Assembly (NCBI RefSeq): GCF_035084215.1
Contig: NC_090354.1
Coordinates: 11,160,001-11,224,000, forward strand
DNA: 64,000 nt
Direction of reading: 5' to 3'
DNA from: Heptranchias perlo
Lineage: Eukaryota
Below the pieces are notes generated by a model. It saw only the letters and a list, made by a program, of their open reading frames with translations, did no database searches and was not told where the DNA came from. Shown here one piece after another: positions 25,410-55,159 of the stretch. Positions within the stretch are counted from its first letter, which is position 1. Each line of letters begins with the position of its first letter. The position numbers were made by a program, and so were the translations under genes.

Positions 25410-27655
25410 ACAGTTTAGGGAACAGCGATCATAGTATCATAAGGTTTAGATTAGCAATGGAAAAGCGCAAGGAGTACTTGAGTAAAAATATTCAATTGGA
25501 GGAGGGCCAATTTCAGTGGGATGAGAACGGATCTGGCCCAGGTAAATTGGAATCAAAGATTGGCAGGCAAAACAGTAATTGAACAATGGGCAGCCTTTAA
25601 AAAGGAGATGGTTCAGGTTCAGTCTAGATACATTCCCATGAGGGGGAAAGTTAGGGCAACTAAAGCCAGAGCTCCCTGGATGATGAAAGAGATAGAGTGT
25701 AAGATGAAACAGAAAAAAAGGGGCGGATGACAGATGTCATGTTGATAATACAAGTGAGAACCAGGCTGAAAGTTCAGAGGGGAAGTGAAAAAGGAAAAAG
25801 AGGGGCAAAGAGAGAGTATGAGAATAGACTGGTGGCTAACATAAAAGGGAATCCAAAAGTCTTCCAGAGGCATATAAACAGTAAACAGTTGGTAGGAGGA
25901 GGGGTGGGACCAATTAGGGTCCAAACAGGAGATCTATGCATGGAGGCAGAGTGCATGGCTGAGGTACTAAATGAATACATTGCATCTGTCTTTACCAAGG
26001 AAAAAGATGCTGCCAAAGTCACAGTAACAGAAGAGGTAGTTGAGATACTGGATTGAATAAAAATTTTAAAAGGAGGTACTAAAAAGGCTAGCTGTAATTA
26101 AAGTAGATAAGTCACCTGGTCCAGATGAGATGCATCCCAGGTTGCTGAGGGAAGTAGGGATGGAAATTGCAGAGGTACTGGCCGTAATCTTCCAATCACC
26201 CTTGGATACGGGCGTGATGCCAGAGGATTGGTGAATTGCAAATGTTTTACTGTTGTTCAAAAAAGAGTGCAAGGATAAACCCAGCAACTACAGGCCAGTT
26301 TAACCTCAGTGATGGGGAATCTTTTAGAAATGATAATCCGGGACAAAATTAACAGTCTCTTGGACAAGTGGGGATTAATTAAGGAAAGCCAGCACGGATT
26401 TGTTAAGGCAAATAGTGTTTAACTAACTTGATTGAGTTTTTTGATGAGGTCACAGAGAGGGTCGATAAGGGCAATACAGTTGATGTAGTGTATATAGACT
26501 TCCAAAAGGCGTTTGATAAAGTGCCACATAATAGGCTTGTCATCAGTTGAAGCCCATGGAAAAAAAGGGGCAGTGGCAGCATGGATACAAAATTGGCTAA
26601 GTGACAGGAAACAGAGAGTAGTGGTGAACAGTTGTTTTTCATACTGGAGGGAGGTATACAGTGGTGTTCCCCAGGGGTCGGTACTAAGACCACTGCTTTT
26701 TTTTATATATATTAATGACTTAGACTTGGGTGTACAGGGCACAATTTCAAAATCTGCAGATGACACAAAACTTGGAAGTGTAGTGAATAGTGAGGACGAT
26801 TGTGATAGACTTCAAGAGGACATAGACAGGTTAGTGGAGTGGGTGGACATGTGGCAGATGAAATTTAATGCAGAAGAGTGCAAAGTGATACATTTTGGTA
26901 GAAAGAACGAAGAGAGGCAATATGAACTAAAGGGTACAATTCTAAAAGGGGTTCAGGAAGAGAGAGATCTGGGGGTATATGTGCACAAATTGTTGAAGGT
27001 GACAGGGCAGGTTGAGGAGGCGGTTAAAAAAGCATATGGGATCCTGGGCTTTATAAATAGAGGCAGAGAGTACAAAAGCAAGGAAGTCATAATGAACCTT
27101 TAGAAAACACTGGTTCGGCCACAACTGGAGTACACGTCCAGTTCTGGGCACCGCACTTTAGGAAGGCCGTGAAGGCTTTAGAGGGGGTGCAGAAGAGGTT
27201 TACTACAATGGTTCCAGGGATGAAGGACTTCAGTTACATGCATAGACTAGAGAAGCTGGGGTTGTTCTTCTTAGAGCAGAGAAGGTTGAGAGGAGATTTG
27301 ATAGAGGTATTTAAAATCATGAAGAGTCTAGACAGAATAGAGAGAAACTGTCCCTTTGCAGAAGGGTCAAGAACCAGAGGACATACATTTAAGGTGATTG
27401 GCAAAAGAACCAAAGGTGACATAAGGAAAAACTTCTTTATTTTAAACACAGTGAGTGGTTAGGATCTGGAATGCACTGCCTGAGGGGGTGGTGGAGGCAG
27501 ATTCAATTGTGGCTTTCAAAAAGGGAATTGGATAAGCACTTGAAGGGAAAAAATTTGCAGAACTACGGAGATAGCTGGATTGCTCTTGCAGAGAGCCGGG
27601 ACGTACTTAACGCGCCAAATGGCCTCCTTCCGTGCTGTAACCATTCCATGATTTG
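25410..27655 (+). mobile_element. Degenerate CR1 LINE ORF2 plus 3' tail
   Basis: Fragments LGNSDH, KSPGPDEMHPR, VYIDFQKAFDKV, SGVPQGSVL, ADDTKL and RLRGDLIEVFK, with stops and frameshifts. Confidence 0.93.
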
Positions 27656-28479: not shown

Positions 28480-29520
28480 GTTACACGATCTCAACTTCTA
28501 GCATCAAAAGTCATGGCATCCAGCAAGCTGATCAAGAATTCAGTCTTGGCTTCTTAGGCAGCTAGTCTTTTTCTAGCCAGAAACTTCTGATACTGACCCC
28601 TAAAAAGCTTGATAACTCCAGCATTCATTGGCTGAAGCTGAGAAGAGATGTTCTTTGGAAGACGGACAAGTTCCAAGTTCATTAGCCAGAAATTGCAGGG
28701 CAGATATTCATAATGATTAACACGCTTCAACCCTGAGCTCGAAATTTTCTGTCCAGAGATCGAATGTACTCCTCAGTTAACCAGGATTGCCGATTGAAAT
28801 GGTAATCAATGCCTCCAGGGAAGTGTCTAACAGTTTTGGAACATCTTGGCCGCTCACTTTTACTGATGAACGGAAGAGGAGACTTCTCAGATCCGTCCAC
28901 ACTGGTGCTCAGAAGAATCACTTGCTCCTTGCTCCATTTCCCACAAACGCACATCTTGTCGCCAAAGGGAAAGTTCCCCCACCCTCGGCAGGAGCTTCCA
29001 GAAAAGTCCCGCTTCAACAAGGTTGAACACATCACACGGCAATACTTTTGAAGTAAGGCAGGCAGAGTTGATGACACAATTAGTTTATCATTTCAGGGGT
29101 CACTTCATTGGCTTCTCCAACCATTATCTTATGAGTTATGACATGAACTTTTTTTTATAAAATCTCTTGATCCATCCCAAGTTGACTTTAGAGCGATCAC
29201 TAAACCTGACTTCTTCTGTGATTTTGACAGCTTTTTCCAATATAATTTGTTCTGAAATTGCAGGGAGATTTTTTTAACATGCTGCCTTGAACAATTTAAG
29301 AAGTTCTGTTCCAACATCATTGAGTTTATAAGTGTGCAACTACTTCATGTCACTTCTGACCCGTTTCAAGACAGAATCTCGTTGTTCTTTGTAGATTTTG
29401 CTGATGATTGTGAGTGACACCATACACTTGTGCTAACTGAGTCAGTGACTTTGACTTTTGTCCAGAGCAGTAATACTTTCGTACATGTGACTCAAATTCT
29501 GATCTGTACGCTTTTTTTAA
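28480..29520 (-). mobile_element. Fossil pogo/Tigger (Tc1-mariner superfamily) transposase
   Basis: Across frames: an HTH_psq-like start (KKRTDQNL..ALDKSQ..KYGV), CENP-B HTH (IILEKAVKI..LGWIKRF), and DDE segments GKWSKEQVILL..DGSEKSPL..KSERPRC, WLTEE..LDRKF, LELVRLPKNISSQLQPMNAGVIK, ISLLDAM. Many stops and frameshifts. Confidence 0.85.
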
Positions 29521-32595: not shown

Positions 32596-33004
32596 CTGTA
32601 AGAAGAAATTTGAATTATCTGTGATACATTGGCACAAATCAGCATAGCCCAGTGTTTCAGCACTTAATTTTACAATGGACAGTAAAGCACTTTACAAGAG
32701 TTTTAAATTAAAATCAGGCTACTTTATAATATTACATGCAGTTTTGCAGATTTACAGTATTTGAGTTTACTAATATCCATTATCTCCACACAGGCCGATA
32801 GAAATCAGCCTTTGGAGGTCACAGTTGAGGACCAGATTGTAATTATCAATTCATTAGTCTCCTGTGGTGACATTTTATTAATAAACTGCTGAAATTTACC
32901 AATGTACTAAACTATATTAATTTTCCTTAATAAAAAAGTAGCTACATAAATTACTTTACAGTTTGTCATAATACTTACCCAGAGTAATATATTGGTACAT
33001 TGAA

Positions 33005-33420
33005 GGAAAGAAAGAACTTGCATTTATGTAGTGCTTTATCAGGTCTTCGGGCTATCCCAAAGTAATTTATAACCAATTAATTAATTTTGAATTGCAATCA
33101 CTGGTATGTGGTCAAATGTAAAAGTTAATTTATACGCAGCAAGGTCCCACAGACAGCAGAGGAGAGATTAATGCCCAGTTAATCTGTTTTTGGCGGTGTT
33201 GGTTGAGGGAGCAATGTTGGCCACCACTATCGTGATGGCAAATATATCAATATTTTTGCTACAAAGGTAATCTGCTTTACAGTATCTAGTCTAGAAAACT
33301 CCCCGCTCTTCTTTGAATCGTGTCATTGGATCTTTTACACATCTAAACTACTGGAAAAGGCCTCAGTTTAATAATTCACCAGAAAGACAAAACAGCGCTC
33401 CCTCAATACTGCAATGAAAT
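33005..33420 (-). mobile_element. Deu-domain SINE
   Basis: Reverse complement of the Deu core and tail (aagaacttgcattt...cagttaatctgtttttgg...ttggttgagggag...aactccccgctcttcttt). Confidence 0.6.
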
Positions 33421-34141
33421 ATAGAAAGAAAGAACTTGGATAGGCCTGGATTATGCACTTTCGTACTTGAACTCACAACTTTCTGACCCAAAAGCGAGTA
33501 CTACTAACTGAGCAAAGCTGACATTGGTGCATCTAATACGTTCCTGGGGTTTGGCTTCATCAGTAGGTATGAAAAGTCTTACAAATATCATATGATTTAT
33601 AACACCATTTATGGGTCTTATAGGGTTGATGCATTGTTCACTATGGAACACTAGAAGATTGGTAGTTTGCAGCTATCCTGTGACTTTCTTGTGGAGTGGT
33701 CTAGGTTTGTGTGGAAGGTGTCTGGCTGTGTGGCCTTCCAGGAATGAGTTCCAGGCAACGTCCGTACATCACCATTCCCGACTGGTTTCATGTCCTGTTG
33801 ATGCTTCACCCATATTTTGCTGTGCAGTGAGTTGTGCTTTTTTGTGGATGGGAGCGGGCTCACATTTTTGTCTAACTGTATGCAGCTTGCCCACTGGTTT
33901 TGGCCCCCAGCTTCAAAAATGTGGGAATCCTTGGCATAGGGGAGGTATCAGTATCCCTAATCGCATCTGTGGATGAGCTGCGCCCGCAAAGGACATGAAC
34001 ACTGGGTTATCAGGCTGGATTTAGGTGCCAGTGTTGGGGTTAGGATGGTAGGTTACTGAGGGAGAGTTGGAGAGTGACTGATGCACAGTCAGCAATAGCA
34101 TGAATGCTGCAAACACACAATAAAATCATGTTTGAAGTATG

Positions 34142-34352
34142 TAAGGAATCTTACAACACCAGGTTATAGTCCAACTGTTTTATTTGAAAATCACAAGCTT
34201 TCGGAGGCTTTCTCCTTCGTCAGGTGAGCGACACCTGACGAAGGAGAAAGCCTCCGAAAGCTTGTGATTTTCAAATAAAACAGTTGGACTATAACCTGGT
34301 GTTGTAAGATTCCTTACATTTGTCAACCCCAGTCCATCACCGACATCTCCAC
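34142..34352. mobile_element. Truncated, 5'-inverted Penelope-like element terminus (palindromic) with 17-bp TSD
   Basis: Perfect 88-bp inverted repeat 34139-34226 / 34232-34319. Direct repeat atcatgtttgaagtatg at 34125-34141 and 34353-34369. Same family as 54663-54783. Confidence 0.85.
34232..34266 (+). ncRNA. Minimal type I hammerhead ribozyme motif (mirror copy on the minus strand at 34192-34226)
   Basis: CAC-CUGACGA-A-GGAG(AAAGC)CUCC-GAA-AGCU-U-GUG: conserved core boxes, stem II, palindromic AGCU at stem III, stem I CAC/GUG. Confidence 0.7.
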
Positions 34353-35547
34353 ATCATGTTTGAAGTATGAATGACAAAACGAATCACAAGCTCCCATGCA
34401 GCAAATTCACAATCTCAACTCTGTCATTGGGGGAGATGTTCTGGGTATGTCCCACCCCCACCAACTCTCACCTATTTGGAGCGTGGCTCATTTTAGTTTA
34501 ACAGTGTAATCTAATTAGATTTGACTCCCTCTGGAAAAATAAGCCATTCCATCGGTGAATGGAGCATAAATATATAAATGAGTTTGTAGTCTGTCACTCT
34601 GACTGTAAAACTCAGTAATATTCTATCCCTGATGTTGACAGTCTGACCTGGCCCCAAGGTTCCCCAAGTGGAGAAGACCAGATGGTTGGCTTTCTCACAC
34701 CTTTGAGTGGCATTGCAAATCAAATAATGCTGCAAAACTGGAAGTCTCGTGCCATACCCACATCTCCAGATGACAGACGGATAGGGCAAACCAACCAAGA
34801 TTTGCAAATGGAAAAGATGCACTGCTCAAAACAATGTGGTCTCAGTTATCACCCACGATGAGTATCTAACTCTCAATCCTCTGATTTCACCTCAAGCTCT
34901 CACTCAGAACCACAGCACCCCACTGCTATCTGATGGGTTATCTCATATGCATTACTGGGCTCCCATCATCATCTGTATGCCTGGTCTCCTATTTTGTAGG
35001 AAGGATCACATTATATACAATGCTTGAAATAAGGTTTTTATTTATAAAAATATGCACTTTTTGGCGAATTGATTTGTGGTCAAAGTAAAGAATGTTGGTG
35101 CTGGGCAATGGAACATTTTTCTTTTTTTGGCACTAAGTTTCAGTAACACTCCCAGGTCAATTATAGTTCAGCTAGACACAGAGCAAAGCTTCCTGTCCAC
35201 TAGCCAAACTATGTGCCTCAGCCACAACCTCAAAGGACCTCCTCTCACTGCACCAGCATGAAATTTCCCTCTCACCCACCAAACTGCTCTTGTGTCATCA
35301 CTGACTTGAGATTGCCAATTTAATACCAATTTTAGGCTGCGAACTAAAGGACTGGGGCTGCCCAAAACTGTCTGCATTTATAACACTAGATCTGTCGAGG
35401 AAGATGCTCATCTGTTTTTTCACCCAGTCTGGCTGGATTTGTACCCATGTCAACGGTGAAAGGGTATTTTAACAACTCACTGCACCAGCCCCCTTCCCTC
35501 TCAAACCTTTCAACAGTTACCAAGCAGGTAATTTGGCTTTTTCTTAC

Positions 35548-35681
35548 CCAAAAGGCTGCTCTCTACACAACAGTAATCAAGGAGCACAGCTCCAGGCCAC
35601 AGCTTAACAGCTCGCAGCAGTGCTTGATAGAATGTCTTCTCCGTGATTTTCTCTCCTCTCACATTCAACATCTGATCTTGT
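35548..35681 (-). CDS. GHDC: GH3 domain-containing protein, coding exon 5
   Basis: tgtcag|A...G|gtaaga; QDQMLNVRGEKITEKTFYQALLRAVKLWPGAVLLDYCCVESSLL; 134 nt. Confidence 0.95.
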
Positions 35682-35784
35682 CTGACAAAGTAAAATGAAC
35701 AAATGTCAAGGTTTAGACATTCAGTAAAATAATTTACAGAGAACAAAATAAATGGATCAAAGTGGCGAAATTAAACCTACATAC

Positions 35785-35856
35785 CTGTACTTAAATTCAA
35801 CGACTGGGCACTGATTGTGGAAACCCACCACCTTTACAATATCCCCAATCCGGTAT
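35785..35856 (-). CDS. GHDC: GH3 domain-containing protein, coding exon 4
   Basis: tttcag|A...AG|gtatgt; YRIGDIVKVVGFHNQCPVVEFKY; 72 nt; GH3 motif III. Confidence 0.95.
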
Positions 35857-36399
35857 CTGAAAAGATCAACAATATCACACACTTGAAAACACAAGTTGTT
35901 TTGGAGCATCGCACGAGAGAATGGGAAATCTTTAAAGTTCAGTTTTAAGTTTTGTTTTCATTTAAACTGCAGGAGGACAATACTTTCTACTATTGCTCCA
36001 TGGGGGCAGACTCTGCAATATGGGATAGTGTCTTTGATTCCCCAAATGGCATATTTGCTAACTTTACTCAAGCAGTTGCAGAAAGTAGTGAGCAAAGGAG
36101 AGCAGCTGAGTTGAATGGGGCTTCTTAGCCCAGCAACTAGTTGCACAGTGGAATGTGAAGAGCTGGGAGTAGGTCTGTCCCCAGTTACACAGTGCAATGT
36201 AGAGAGGCTGGGAGCAGATTTGTCAACCCTTTCAGTTGTTTAATCTAAACAGTGAATTGGCGATAAACTGCAGCCTGTAGCTCTGCTGAGTTCTCGCCAT
36301 ATCAGTGCCCCAATGCACTGTGTAAAAGCTGACACTCAGAACACAAGAGGATTACAACAATAACCAACATATAGTGTTTTTGACATAGAAAATCATCCC

Positions 36400-46014: not shown

Positions 46015-48790
46015 TGACATAGCCACACTCACAGAATCATACCTTTCAGCCAATGTCCCAGACTCTTCCATCACCATCCCTGGGTATATCCTGTCCCACC
46101 GGCAGGACAGACCGACCAGAGGTGGCGGTACAGTGATATACAGTCAGGAGGGAGGGGCCCTGGGAGTCCTCCACATTGATCTGGACACCATGAAATCTCA
46201 TGGCATCAGGTCAAACATGGGCAAGGAAACCTCCTGCTGATTATCACCTACCGCCCTCCCTCAGCTGATTCATCAGTCCTCCTCCATGTTGAACACCACT
46301 TGGAGGAAGCACAGAGGGTAGCAAGGGCACAGAATGTACTCTGGGTGGGGGACTTCAATGTCCATCACCAAGAGTGGCTCGGTAGCATCACTACTGACCG
46401 AACTGGCCGAGTCCTAAAGGACATGGCTGCCAGACTGGGCCTGCGGCAGGTGGTGAGCGAACCAACACGAGGGAAAAACTTACTTGACCTCGTTCTCACC
46501 AATCTACCTGTTGCAAATGCATCTGTCCATGACAGTATTGGTAGGAGTGACCACCGCACAGTTCTCGTGGAGATGAAGTCCTGTCTTCGCACTGAGGGCA
46601 CCATCCAACGTGTTGTGTGGCACTACCACCATGCACCATGCTGATAGATTCAGAACAGATCGAGCAGCTCAAAATTGGGCATCCATGAGGCGCTGTGGGC
46701 CATCAGCAGCAGCAGAATTGTATTCCAGCACAATCTGTAACCTCATGGCCCGGCATATTCCTCACTCTACCATTACCAACAAACCAGGGGATCAACCCTG
46801 GTTCAATGAGGAGTGTAGAAGAGCACATCAGGAGCAGCACCAGGCGTACCTAAAAATGAGGTGCCAACCTGGTGAAGCTACAACTCAGGACTACATGCAT
46901 GCTAAACAGTGGAAGCAACATGCTATAGACAGAGCTAAGCGATTCCACAACCAACGGATCAGATTAAAGCTCTGCAGTCCTGCCACATCCAGTCGTGATT
47001 GTGGTGGACAATTAAACAACCAACGGGAGGAGGAGGCTCTGTAAACATCCCCATCCTCAACGATGGCGGAGTCCAGCACGTGAGTGCAAAAGACAAGGCT
47101 GAAGCGTTTGCAACCATCTTCAGCCAGAAGTGCCGAGTGGATGATCCATCTTGGCCTCCTCCCGATATACCCACCATAACAGAAGCCAGTCTTCAGCCAA
47201 TTCGATTCACTCCACGTGATATCAAGAAACGGCTGAGTACACTGGATACAGCAAAGGCTATGGGCCCCGACAACATCCCAGCTGTAGTGCTGAAGACTTG
47301 TGCTCCAGAACTAGCTGCGCCTCTAGCCAAGCTGTTCCAGTACAGCTACAACACTGGCATCCACCCGACAATGTGGAAAATTGCCCAGGTATGTCCTGTC
47401 CACAAAAAGCAGGACAAATCCAATCCGGCCAATTATTGCCCCATCAGTCTACTATCAATCATCAGCAAAGTGATGGAAGGTGTCGTCGACAGTGCTATCA
47501 AGCGGCACTTACTCACCAATAACCTGCTCACCGATGCTCAGTTTGGGTTCCGCCAGGACCACTCGGCTCCAGACCTCATTACAGCCTTGGTCCAAACATG
47601 GACAAAAGAGCTGAATTCCAGAGGTGAGGTGAAAGTGACTGCCCTTGACATCAAGGCAGCATTTGACCGAGTGTGGCACCAAGGAGCCGTAGTAAAATTT
47701 AAATCAATGGGAATCAGGGGGAAAACTCTCCAGTGGCTGGAGTCATACCTAACGCAAAGAAAGATGGTAGTGGTTGTTGGAGGCCAATCATCTCAGCCCC
47801 AGAACATTGCTGCAGGAGTTCCTGAAGGCAGTGTCCTAGGCCCAACCATCTTCAGCTGCTTCATCAATGACCTTCCCTCCATCATAAGGTCAGAAATGGG
47901 GATGTTCGCTGATGATTGCACATTGTTCAGTTCCATTCGCAACACCTCAGATAATGAAGCAGTCCGAGCCCGCATGCAGCAAGACCTGGGCAACATCCAG
48001 GCTTGGGCTCATAAGTGGCAAGTAACATTCGCGCCAGACAAGTGCCAGGCAATGACCATCTCCAACAAGAGAGAGTCTAACCACCTCCCCTTGACATTCA
48101 ACAGCACTACCATCGCCAAATCCCCCACTATCAACATCCTGGGGGTCACCATTGACCAGAAACTTAACTGGAGCAGCCATATAAATACTGTGGCTACAAG
48201 AGCAGGTCAGAGGCTGGGTATTCTGCAGCTAATGACTCACCTCCTGACTCTCCAAAGCCTTTCCACCATCTACAAGGCACAAGTCAGGAGTGTGATGGAA
48301 TACTCTCCACTTGCTTGGATGAGTGCAGCTCCAACAACACTCAAGAAGCTCGACACCATCCAGGACAAAGCAGCCCGCTTGATTGGCACCCCATCCACCA
48401 CCCTAAACATTCACTCCCTTCACCACTGGCGCACAGTGGCTGCAATGTGTACCATCCACAGGATGCACTGCAGCAACTCGCGAAGGATTCTTCGACAGCA
48501 CCTCCCAAACCCGCGACCTCTACCACCTAGGACAAGAGCAGCAGGTACATGCGAACAACACCACCTGCACGTTCACCTCCAAGTCACAAACCACCCTAAC
48601 TTGGAAATATATTGCCGTTCCTTCATCGTCGCTGGGTCAAGATCCTGGAACTCCCTTCTTAACAGCACTGTGGGAGAACCTTCACCACATGGACTGCAGC
48701 GGTTCAAGAAGGCGGCTCACCACCAGGGATGGGCAATAAATGCCGGCCTCGCCAGCGACGCCCACATCCCATGAACGAATAAAAAAAAAA
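46015..48790 (+). mobile_element. L2/CR1-group LINE with near-complete APE-RT ORF2
   Basis: APE motifs (LTESYL, RGGG, VGDFN, LDLVLTN, SDH), then a 591-aa RT ORF (NYCPISLLS, DIKAAFDRVWH, GVPEGSVLGP, FADD). A few frameshifts; 3' A-tail. Confidence 0.95.
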
Positions 48791-54600: not shown

Positions 54601-54662
54601 AGCATGAAACTTTGATTCTTAAGGGTTGCAAATAATTTGCTAAAAATCTTAATCCCCGAAAG

Positions 54663-54783
54663 CTGAGGAAGGAGGTAGCCTCCGAAAGCTTGTGAATTTA
54701 AAATAAAATTGCTGGACTATAACTTGGTGTTGTAAAATTGTTTACAATTGTCAACCCCAGTCCATCACCGGCATCTCCACATC
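54663..54783 (+). mobile_element. Penelope-like terminus with hammerhead core
   Basis: CTGAGGA-A-GGAGG(TAG)CCTCC-GAA-AGCT-T-GTG, followed by a tail closely similar to 34261-34355 (tgtcaaccccagtccatcaccg.catctccacatc). Confidence 0.8.
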
Positions 54784-55159
54784 AGGAAGACAGTGGCATT
54801 GTATTATCGGGAGTTACACTGCTCACCAATCTACTCGTGAAGTTTCTGATCTCTGCTGACCACCTCATGAGAGGCCTACTCATCAGTTGTTTAATGATTA
54901 ATAACTTTCTTCGTGGAGGGTAGGTGAAGGTAAGGGCCAAAATGGCTCAGACAGACAATAACTTGCCTGATGATGGAAGACTAAACTCAGTTAATTTCTG
55001 TGATAAATTCAGTTCCAATCTTCCATCCTGAGCCACTTAGGTCCACTTATGTCAGGACAATTTTGATTACTGACCAGCCAACCTAATTCATTATTGAGAT
55101 ATGGCTAGGTACATCACTGGGGCTGGGATTTTCACAAATCAGCTCCACGTAATGGCCGT

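Follow-up and report, generated by a model that had tools for sequence, protein, structure and literature searches.

A palindrome in a GHDC intron of Heptranchias perlo best explained as a head-to-head insertion of a Penelope-like retrotransposon

How does an intron come to contain a perfect palindrome with a hammerhead ribozyme motif on each strand? The palindrome in question lies within the GHDC gene of Heptranchias perlo, in a stretch of 64,000 nucleotides (contig NC_090354.1, positions 11,160,001 to 11,224,000; hereafter, the window). A preliminary description, made from the sequence alone, had reported exact 88-bp arms, a flanking 17-bp direct repeat, and a location in a GHDC intron, and all three were borne out: the arms (34139-34226 and 34232-34319) are reverse complements at 88 of 88 positions around the bases AGCGA, the repeat is exact (34125-34141 = 34353-34369), and assembled contigs join across the intron. 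The locus almost certainly goes back to one insertion event, in which a Penelope-like retrotransposon (PLE) of the endonuclease-positive kind left two 5'-truncated copies arranged 5'-to-5' between target-site duplications (TSDs). Its features, in window positions and with leader positions given relative to the ATG of the element, are:

32596..35547, minus strand: host GHDC intron of 2,952 nt, bounded by CT..AC (from contig joins and Pfam GH3 pieces)
34125..34141, no strand: TSD, left copy, its final three bases in common with the arm end (from the exact repeat and a TSD survey of the family)
34139..34231, minus strand: tail-less arm, leader -129 to -37, including the 5-nt "loop" (0 differences in 93 bases from the leader of the full-length copy L142)
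34192..34226, minus strand: mirror of the hammerhead motif at 34232-34266, on the GHDC strand; a candidate ribozyme, predicted to cut after 34195
34232..34266, plus strand: minimal type I hammerhead motif, core boxes read from the sequence; a candidate ribozyme
34232..34358, plus strand: tailed arm, leader -124 to +2 (1 difference in 127 bases from L142); the ATG at 34356-34358 starts the element ORF
34320..34358, plus strand: Penelope "tail," present in one arm only, between the two clusters of 3' ends in the family (~-37 and ~+1; from end clustering)
34353..34369, no strand: TSD, right copy, its initial six bases in common with the tail end (from the exact repeat and the family TSD survey)

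The AGCGA that had been described as a 5-nt loop is indeed present, but it is not a separate loop: the left arm simply continues through these five native bases, and the arms abut bluntly. The tail-less arm is in the sense orientation on the GHDC (minus) strand, and the tail of the other arm (34320-34358), overlooked in the preliminary description, terminates in the ATG of the element. The 17-bp repeat overlaps the element ends by six and three bases, the typical TSD of the family being 12-13 bp (50 of the 75 found). The window copy has no ORF; as a stump with neither promoter nor ORF, it is most likely inert. The perfect arms and TSD point to an insertion that is likely to be relatively young. 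The claim of a very young insertion holds only in a relative sense (together, the arms differ from the leader of L142 at one of 220 bases), but perfect arms were also present in 10 of 46 census pairs (mean arm difference 2.5%), and homogenization of the arms is possible.

GHDC is encoded on the minus strand, and pieces of the Pfam GH3 domain (N, M, and C) lie on both flanks of the palindrome. In three RNA-like runs, all of one sample in one study, contigs connect 32594 with 35547, and the element lies inside the intron so defined, its distance being ~1.2 kb to the donor and ~1.5 kb to the acceptor. These contigs gave no A>G or T>C rows and, among the joints displayed (81 others lay outside the listing), no empty-site joint, although contigs are unsuited to revealing editing, small RNAs, transcript starts, or polymorphism. 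Two other segments of this intron are probably further mobile insertions: 33006-33441, which is repetitive by depth and flanked by 18-bp direct repeats (94%), and 35244-35489, which is flanked by 14-bp direct repeats (100%). Elsewhere in the window we observed an older, unpaired, tailed copy of the leader (54660-54785), with the core variant CUGAGGA and another loop II, as well as other transposons: a 591-aa RVT_1 frame (46999-48774, plus strand), a reverse transcriptase (RT) fragment (26498-27103, plus strand), and a weak DDE_1 fragment (28727-29092, minus strand).

Each arm corresponds to the 5' leader, from the predicted start site to the ATG, of an abundant autonomous PLE whose RT and endonuclease ORF is present in longer relatives. 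The Penelope-like origin proposed for the palindrome was thus upheld, as was its minimal type I hammerhead with a palindromic AGCU, the core boxes of which are present. In tandem copies the order is a TATA-like box, an initiator-like motif, the hammerhead (90-124 nt upstream of the ATG in the parent), the tail, the ATG, and the ORF, and the tail continues directly into the ATG and the ORF. Long loci contain the leader before the ATG and again at the 3' end, in partial tandems that form pLTRs. One of 16 long loci, L213, has an intact RT-endonuclease ORF of 891 aa (L213:1297-3969, minus strand), the 15 others having earlier stops; the upstream pLTR of L213 extends to -177. Its ORF matched Pfam RVT_1 (E = 1.7e-9) and exhibits, by inspection, DKG and GIY-YIG/CCHH-like residues; Pfam gave no direct match to GIY-YIG for this ORF, and no PDB sequence matched the parent ORF in a search. 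The Atlas clusters nearest to the parent ORF carry RT and HTH_animal, with GIY-YIG in part of their members (26-52% for neighbors at 0.98, where listed). Both L061 and L213 contain a CX4CxxC linker. A CX2-5CxxC linker before the endonuclease marks Neptune and is common to Nematis (PMC8557442); by its linker, the parent would be of the Neptune/Nematis type. Subfamilies (L121, L122, and L140 versus L142 and L147) have a common leader that begins with the initiator-like motif, but they differ in the TATA-bearing region upstream of it, a pattern that suggests promoter turnover. In L061, ~70 bp of internal ORF sequence (L061:1046-1114) is inverted within the 3' region of one arm, which suggests a template switch.

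On the plus strand the hammerhead motif comprises stem I (34232-34234/34264-34266), the core CUGACGA (34235-34241), an extra A (34242), stem II (34243-34246/34252-34255), GAA, the palindromic AGCU (34259-34262), and U17 (34263). Cleavage is predicted after 34263, equivalent to a cut after 34195 on the GHDC strand (numbering by inspection). The hallmarks of the minimal type I class are present, namely the CUGANGA and GAAA..UH boxes, the extra base before stem II, G10.1-C11.1, and the palindromic 15/16. The motif thus reads as the preliminary description had it, with hammerheads back to back; each strand, however, bears a single sense copy, the other arm being its complement. Thirteen recurrent haplotypes and the window copy vary mainly at N7 and loop II; U4 is altered in one haplotype. 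In stems I and II, 98% of cells are paired, as compared with 33-63% in slid controls, and the changes are one-sided, none of them compensatory. A search of Rfam did not corroborate the assignment, returning no hammerhead family at E values up to 1 or up to 10 and only sub-threshold miRNA and leader matches attributable to the hairpin; minimal hammerheads without stem III may escape the Rfam models. In a single case, at L178 (G000:C1:8488167), an arm has lost internal sequence extending from loop II of the hammerhead to the base just past the predicted cut.

When two units were co-folded, their AAGCUU palindromes were predicted to pair, which is compatible with a dimer and no more; small PLE hammerheads are said, in a 2017 paper, to cleave as dimers. 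As had been noted, transcription of the minus-strand gene places the antisense arm ahead of the hammerhead in GHDC pre-mRNA. The minus-strand RNA folds with a predicted energy of -175.7 kcal/mol (z = -25.3, equalled by 0 of 200 shuffles), and the hammerhead should be buried in the resulting duplex. The self-muting cassette proposed on these grounds reduces to a plain consequence of head-to-head geometry, which would mute the ribozyme of any such pair on either strand; moreover, a lone minimal hammerhead did not cleave in vitro (PMC4209133).

How common are such palindromes? A 28-mer of the hammerhead core occurs in 12,317 copies genome-wide and a downstream 28-mer in 26,575, with no matches for the reversed controls. 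Close opposite-strand pairs numbered 14 among the first 100 of the 12,317 matches listed, and if the sampled stretch of contig C1 is typical, the genome would contain ~1,700 short palindromes. The TSD-flanked look-alikes that the preliminary description had anticipated do exist: a search with the whole palindrome yielded 1,648 candidates, and all 40 of those scored had the same form. Arms were then cataloged in the first 25 Mb of C1, with two motifs and the first 100 matches that were listed for them, a census that the exact 28-mers skew to young copies. It comprised 212 arms and 71 head-to-head pairs. Sixty-eight pairs consisted of a tailed and a tail-less arm, two were ambiguous, one had two tail-less arms, and none had two tailed arms (1e-19 versus independent choice). 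Pairing is not obligatory, since 45 of the 147 arms of the first census had no partner, and the full-length locus L212 has a tail at each end. Arm lengths form a continuum from ~40 bp to more than 2 kb, up to near-full-length elements. A TSD of at least 9 bp was found in 75 of 98 insertions examined (mode, 12-13 bp); its overlap with the element ends averages ~1.5 nt per side, perhaps above chance.

The centers of the palindromes are informative in another way. That of the window copy occurs once in the 3.25-Gb genome, and centers differ among the 30 best matches, small repeats aside. A center private to the window copy indicates that the palindrome was built at insertion. One recurrent center, the only one checked genome-wide, was found in 11 copies, which have different variants and bear the tail on one side in five cases and on the other side in six.

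The ends of the arms fall at preferred positions. Outer (3') ends cluster at -38 to -35 (36 of 99) and at -1 to +2 (33 of 99), an arrangement paralleled by the two RT start sites of the anole element (PMC11167929). Among 142 inner ends of paired arms, 58 lie between -117 and -137 (2.8 per nt) and eight between -148 and -200 (0.15 per nt); 13 were placed at -138 to -147 by BLAST (two by exact walking), and 30 lie beyond -200. In two subfamilies with unlike upstream sequence we noted, by inspection, a TATA-like box ~28-30 nt before an initiator-like motif located where the inner ends drop off; in the leader, the TATA-like box is at ~-163 and the initiator at ~-133. The motifs and the clustering of ends together suggest that the RNA starts at the initiator. 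Two other templates were considered and rejected. RNA cleaved by the ribozyme would give inner ends at -92, where only one of 99 arms ends (as a result of an internal deletion), with one more at -91; the lack of a peak at the ribozyme cut agrees with the finding that cleavage is dispensable in vitro (PMC11167929). A spliced template would call for an AG acceptor directly upstream of the motif, and inspection revealed none.

The two arms of a pair are commonly alike. Of 89 pairs, 84 were usable, and in 63 of these both arms had the same subfamily haplotype, as compared with a proportion of 0.24 in shuffles. The other 21 of the 84 differed at a diagnostic column, mainly by single private changes, and two to five pairs (L057, L114, L098, L013, and L066) resembled two subfamilies or templates. 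Of the rare variants, nine were common to both arms and 75 were private. In five of ten long pairs the arms were nearer to each other than to other copies. The match of haplotypes could also stem from successive subfamily waves or from later homogenization of the arms, rather than from a shared RNA. The second pair at L101 (G000:C1:17587922-17589366) is symmetric, with arms of 706 and 706 bp that are 0.3% apart over 707 bp and at least 6% from the 21 other arms compared; this pair may reflect homogenization, or else a rare subfamily that was copied recently. At the center, the longer arm was the tail-less one in 23 of 48 pairs and the tailed one in 16, with nine equal. The 48 clean junctions (nine of 57 listed pairs being omitted because the walk broke at indels) were blunt or overlapped by 1-2 nt in 21 cases, contained filler bases in 23, and overlapped by 3 nt or more in four.

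What process would join two leaders head to head? An inverted 5'-truncated copy with a one-sided tail is typical of PLEs (PMC8557442), and for an element of this kind two RT start sites are known to bound the tail, both target strands to be cut and extended, and the protein is predicted to dimerize (PMC11167929). The mechanism toward which we lean is one in which the two RT start sites serve as priming points for both target strands, whose extension runs off the 5' end of the RNA and is followed by joining of the ends. The element protein would make a staggered cut of ~12-13 bp, and each free 3' end would prime reverse transcription, one at the outer site (~+1) and the other at the inner site (~-37). 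The template would be RNA from one source element, in one or two molecules. Priming at the 5'-proximal copy of the sites would leave ~95-135 nt before the 5' end of the RNA, and the two cDNA ends would be joined bluntly, with a 1-2-nt overlap, or with a few filler bases. Read-through RNA would then present the antisense arm first and the hammerhead in duplex, as a by-product of geometry. Taken whole, this explanation of the locus as such an insertion is very probable, with double priming as its more tentative part.

In vitro, the anole element chooses its start site in the same way whether the strand is top or bottom (PMC11167929), and a choice so independent of strand is not, on its own, a basis for predicting the one-tail rule. 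We put forward, tentatively and as somewhat less than an even bet, a coupled form of double priming, in which a protein dimer would set both cut strands on the two start sites of one RNA (or of two RNAs joined via the AGCU palindrome), both would copy the same leader as far as the cap site, with joining of their ends to follow. If this is true, one step would account for the head-to-head repeats, the one-sided tail, and the size of the stumps, and the stumps would be a genome-scale record of "strong-stop"-like cDNAs. A search of freely accessible papers found no published double-priming model for PLE inversions; a search of such papers on shark PLEs likewise found none.

A different origin for the mirror arm, and in our judgment an unlikely one, is self-priming by fold-back, with either an antisense RNA or the first cDNA as its template, a route suggested for the Penelopes of rotifers. 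This is a published hypothesis for head-to-head junctions (PMC3846280), and it accords with arms that are mostly of one haplotype and, in five of ten long pairs, closest to each other. Fold-back of a tailed cDNA, however, demands that the tailed arm be the longer one at the center and cannot yield the 23 of 48 pairs in which the tail-less arm is longer. Nor would self-priming lead one to expect that only four of 48 clean junctions overlap by 3 nt or more, that inner ends halt at the sense start site, or that a few pairs have two subfamily haplotypes. The version with antisense RNA keeps some probability. The preliminary description had raised, conditionally, a non-autonomous mobile unit bearing the ribozyme; on this reading a palindromic unit resembling a MITE or a retrozyme would be copied whole. 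Such a unit would explain the ~1,700 extrapolated short palindromes, the likeness of all 40 scored candidates, and the center present in 11 copies. It fails, however, to explain why the center of the window copy is unique and centers differ elsewhere, why the recurrent center is accompanied by different variants and by a tail on either side (five versus six), why lengths are continuous, and why the upstream TATA region is absent; this possibility is largely refuted, and we regard it as very improbable.

No more credible is a selected role at this locus, as a self-muting ribozyme or dsRNA regulator of GHDC. A perfect 88-bp hairpin in a transcribed intron, antisense arm first, is what such a regulator might look like, but the identical geometry is found in all 71 pairs whatever the host gene, the sequence is nearly unchanged from that of the mobile family, and the insertion is more than 1 kb from each splice site in an intron across which contigs join. 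There is no sign of selection on this locus. Least probable is an assembly artefact. The palindrome center was spanned by none of the contigs from four runs of one sample, and the assembly may itself have been made from the DNA runs; against this, both outer junctions were crossed by DNA contigs (33182-34163 and 34330-36200), the TSD is exact, the tail is one-sided, and the same grammar recurs at dozens of loci. By itself, the locus is one retrotransposon footprint, most likely inert, among thousands. Annotators should beware that such stumps mimic MITEs and miRNA hairpins, as the sub-threshold miRNA matches illustrate, and the many perfect hairpins in introns are potential sources of dsRNA.

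In L1 twin priming, too, both target strands prime and an inversion with joined cDNA ends results. There, each cDNA is copied from a separate part of the RNA, whereas here both would copy the same part, giving a palindrome. The closest likenesses are to the endonuclease-positive PLEs with an inverted pLTR and a tail (PMC3846280, PMC8557442), which similarly exhibit 5'-truncated copies, partial-tandem pLTRs, an inverted truncated neighbor, a 30-40-bp tail at one end, a TSD, TATA and initiator motifs in the pLTR, and head-to-head junctions. In contrast to these, the commonest pair here is a two-leader stump without ORF sequence (an estimated at least 1,700 copies), the tail stops at the ATG rather than extending into the ORF, and the one-tail rule and start-site cliff have been counted. 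PAc/Poseidon of the green anole (PMC11167929) likewise has two RT start sites bounding the tail, a hammerhead near the pLTR-ORF junction, and no sign of cleaved RNA as template. It differs in belonging to the Penelope/Poseidon clade and in having its start codon within the hammerhead, as opposed to the CX4CxxC linker and upstream hammerhead of the parent described here; inverted insertions are not treated in that paper, where the word "inverted" appears once in an unrelated sense. The minimal hammerheads of metazoan PLEs (PMC4209133) agree with ours in their core boxes, in the additional base ahead of stem II, and in G10.1-C11.1 and the palindromic 15/16, and opposite-strand pairs 100-700 bp apart were already noted among them; here stem II is 4 bp and stem I 3 bp, and the hammerhead is a candidate ribozyme. 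Finally, the non-LTR retrozymes (bioRxiv 10.64898/2026.07.22.740005) are also protein-free, hammerhead-bearing derivatives of PLE pLTRs. They are direct tandems with at least two sense hammerheads, whereas at our locus the pair is inverted and each strand has a single sense motif; the locus lacks direct tandem units, and we rejected its assignment to that class.

Published work already includes PLE insertions that are inverted, tailed, and flanked by TSDs, as well as hammerheads paired on opposite strands (PMC4209133, PMC8557442, PMC3846280), and the origin of the tandem and inverted structures of Penelope has been named an open problem (PMC8557442). What is new here are the counts of the one-tail rule, of the cut-off at the TATA/initiator region, and of the haplotype match between arms. 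These counts make the coupled double-priming model testable, and they yield clear-cut predictions for the in vitro system that already exists.
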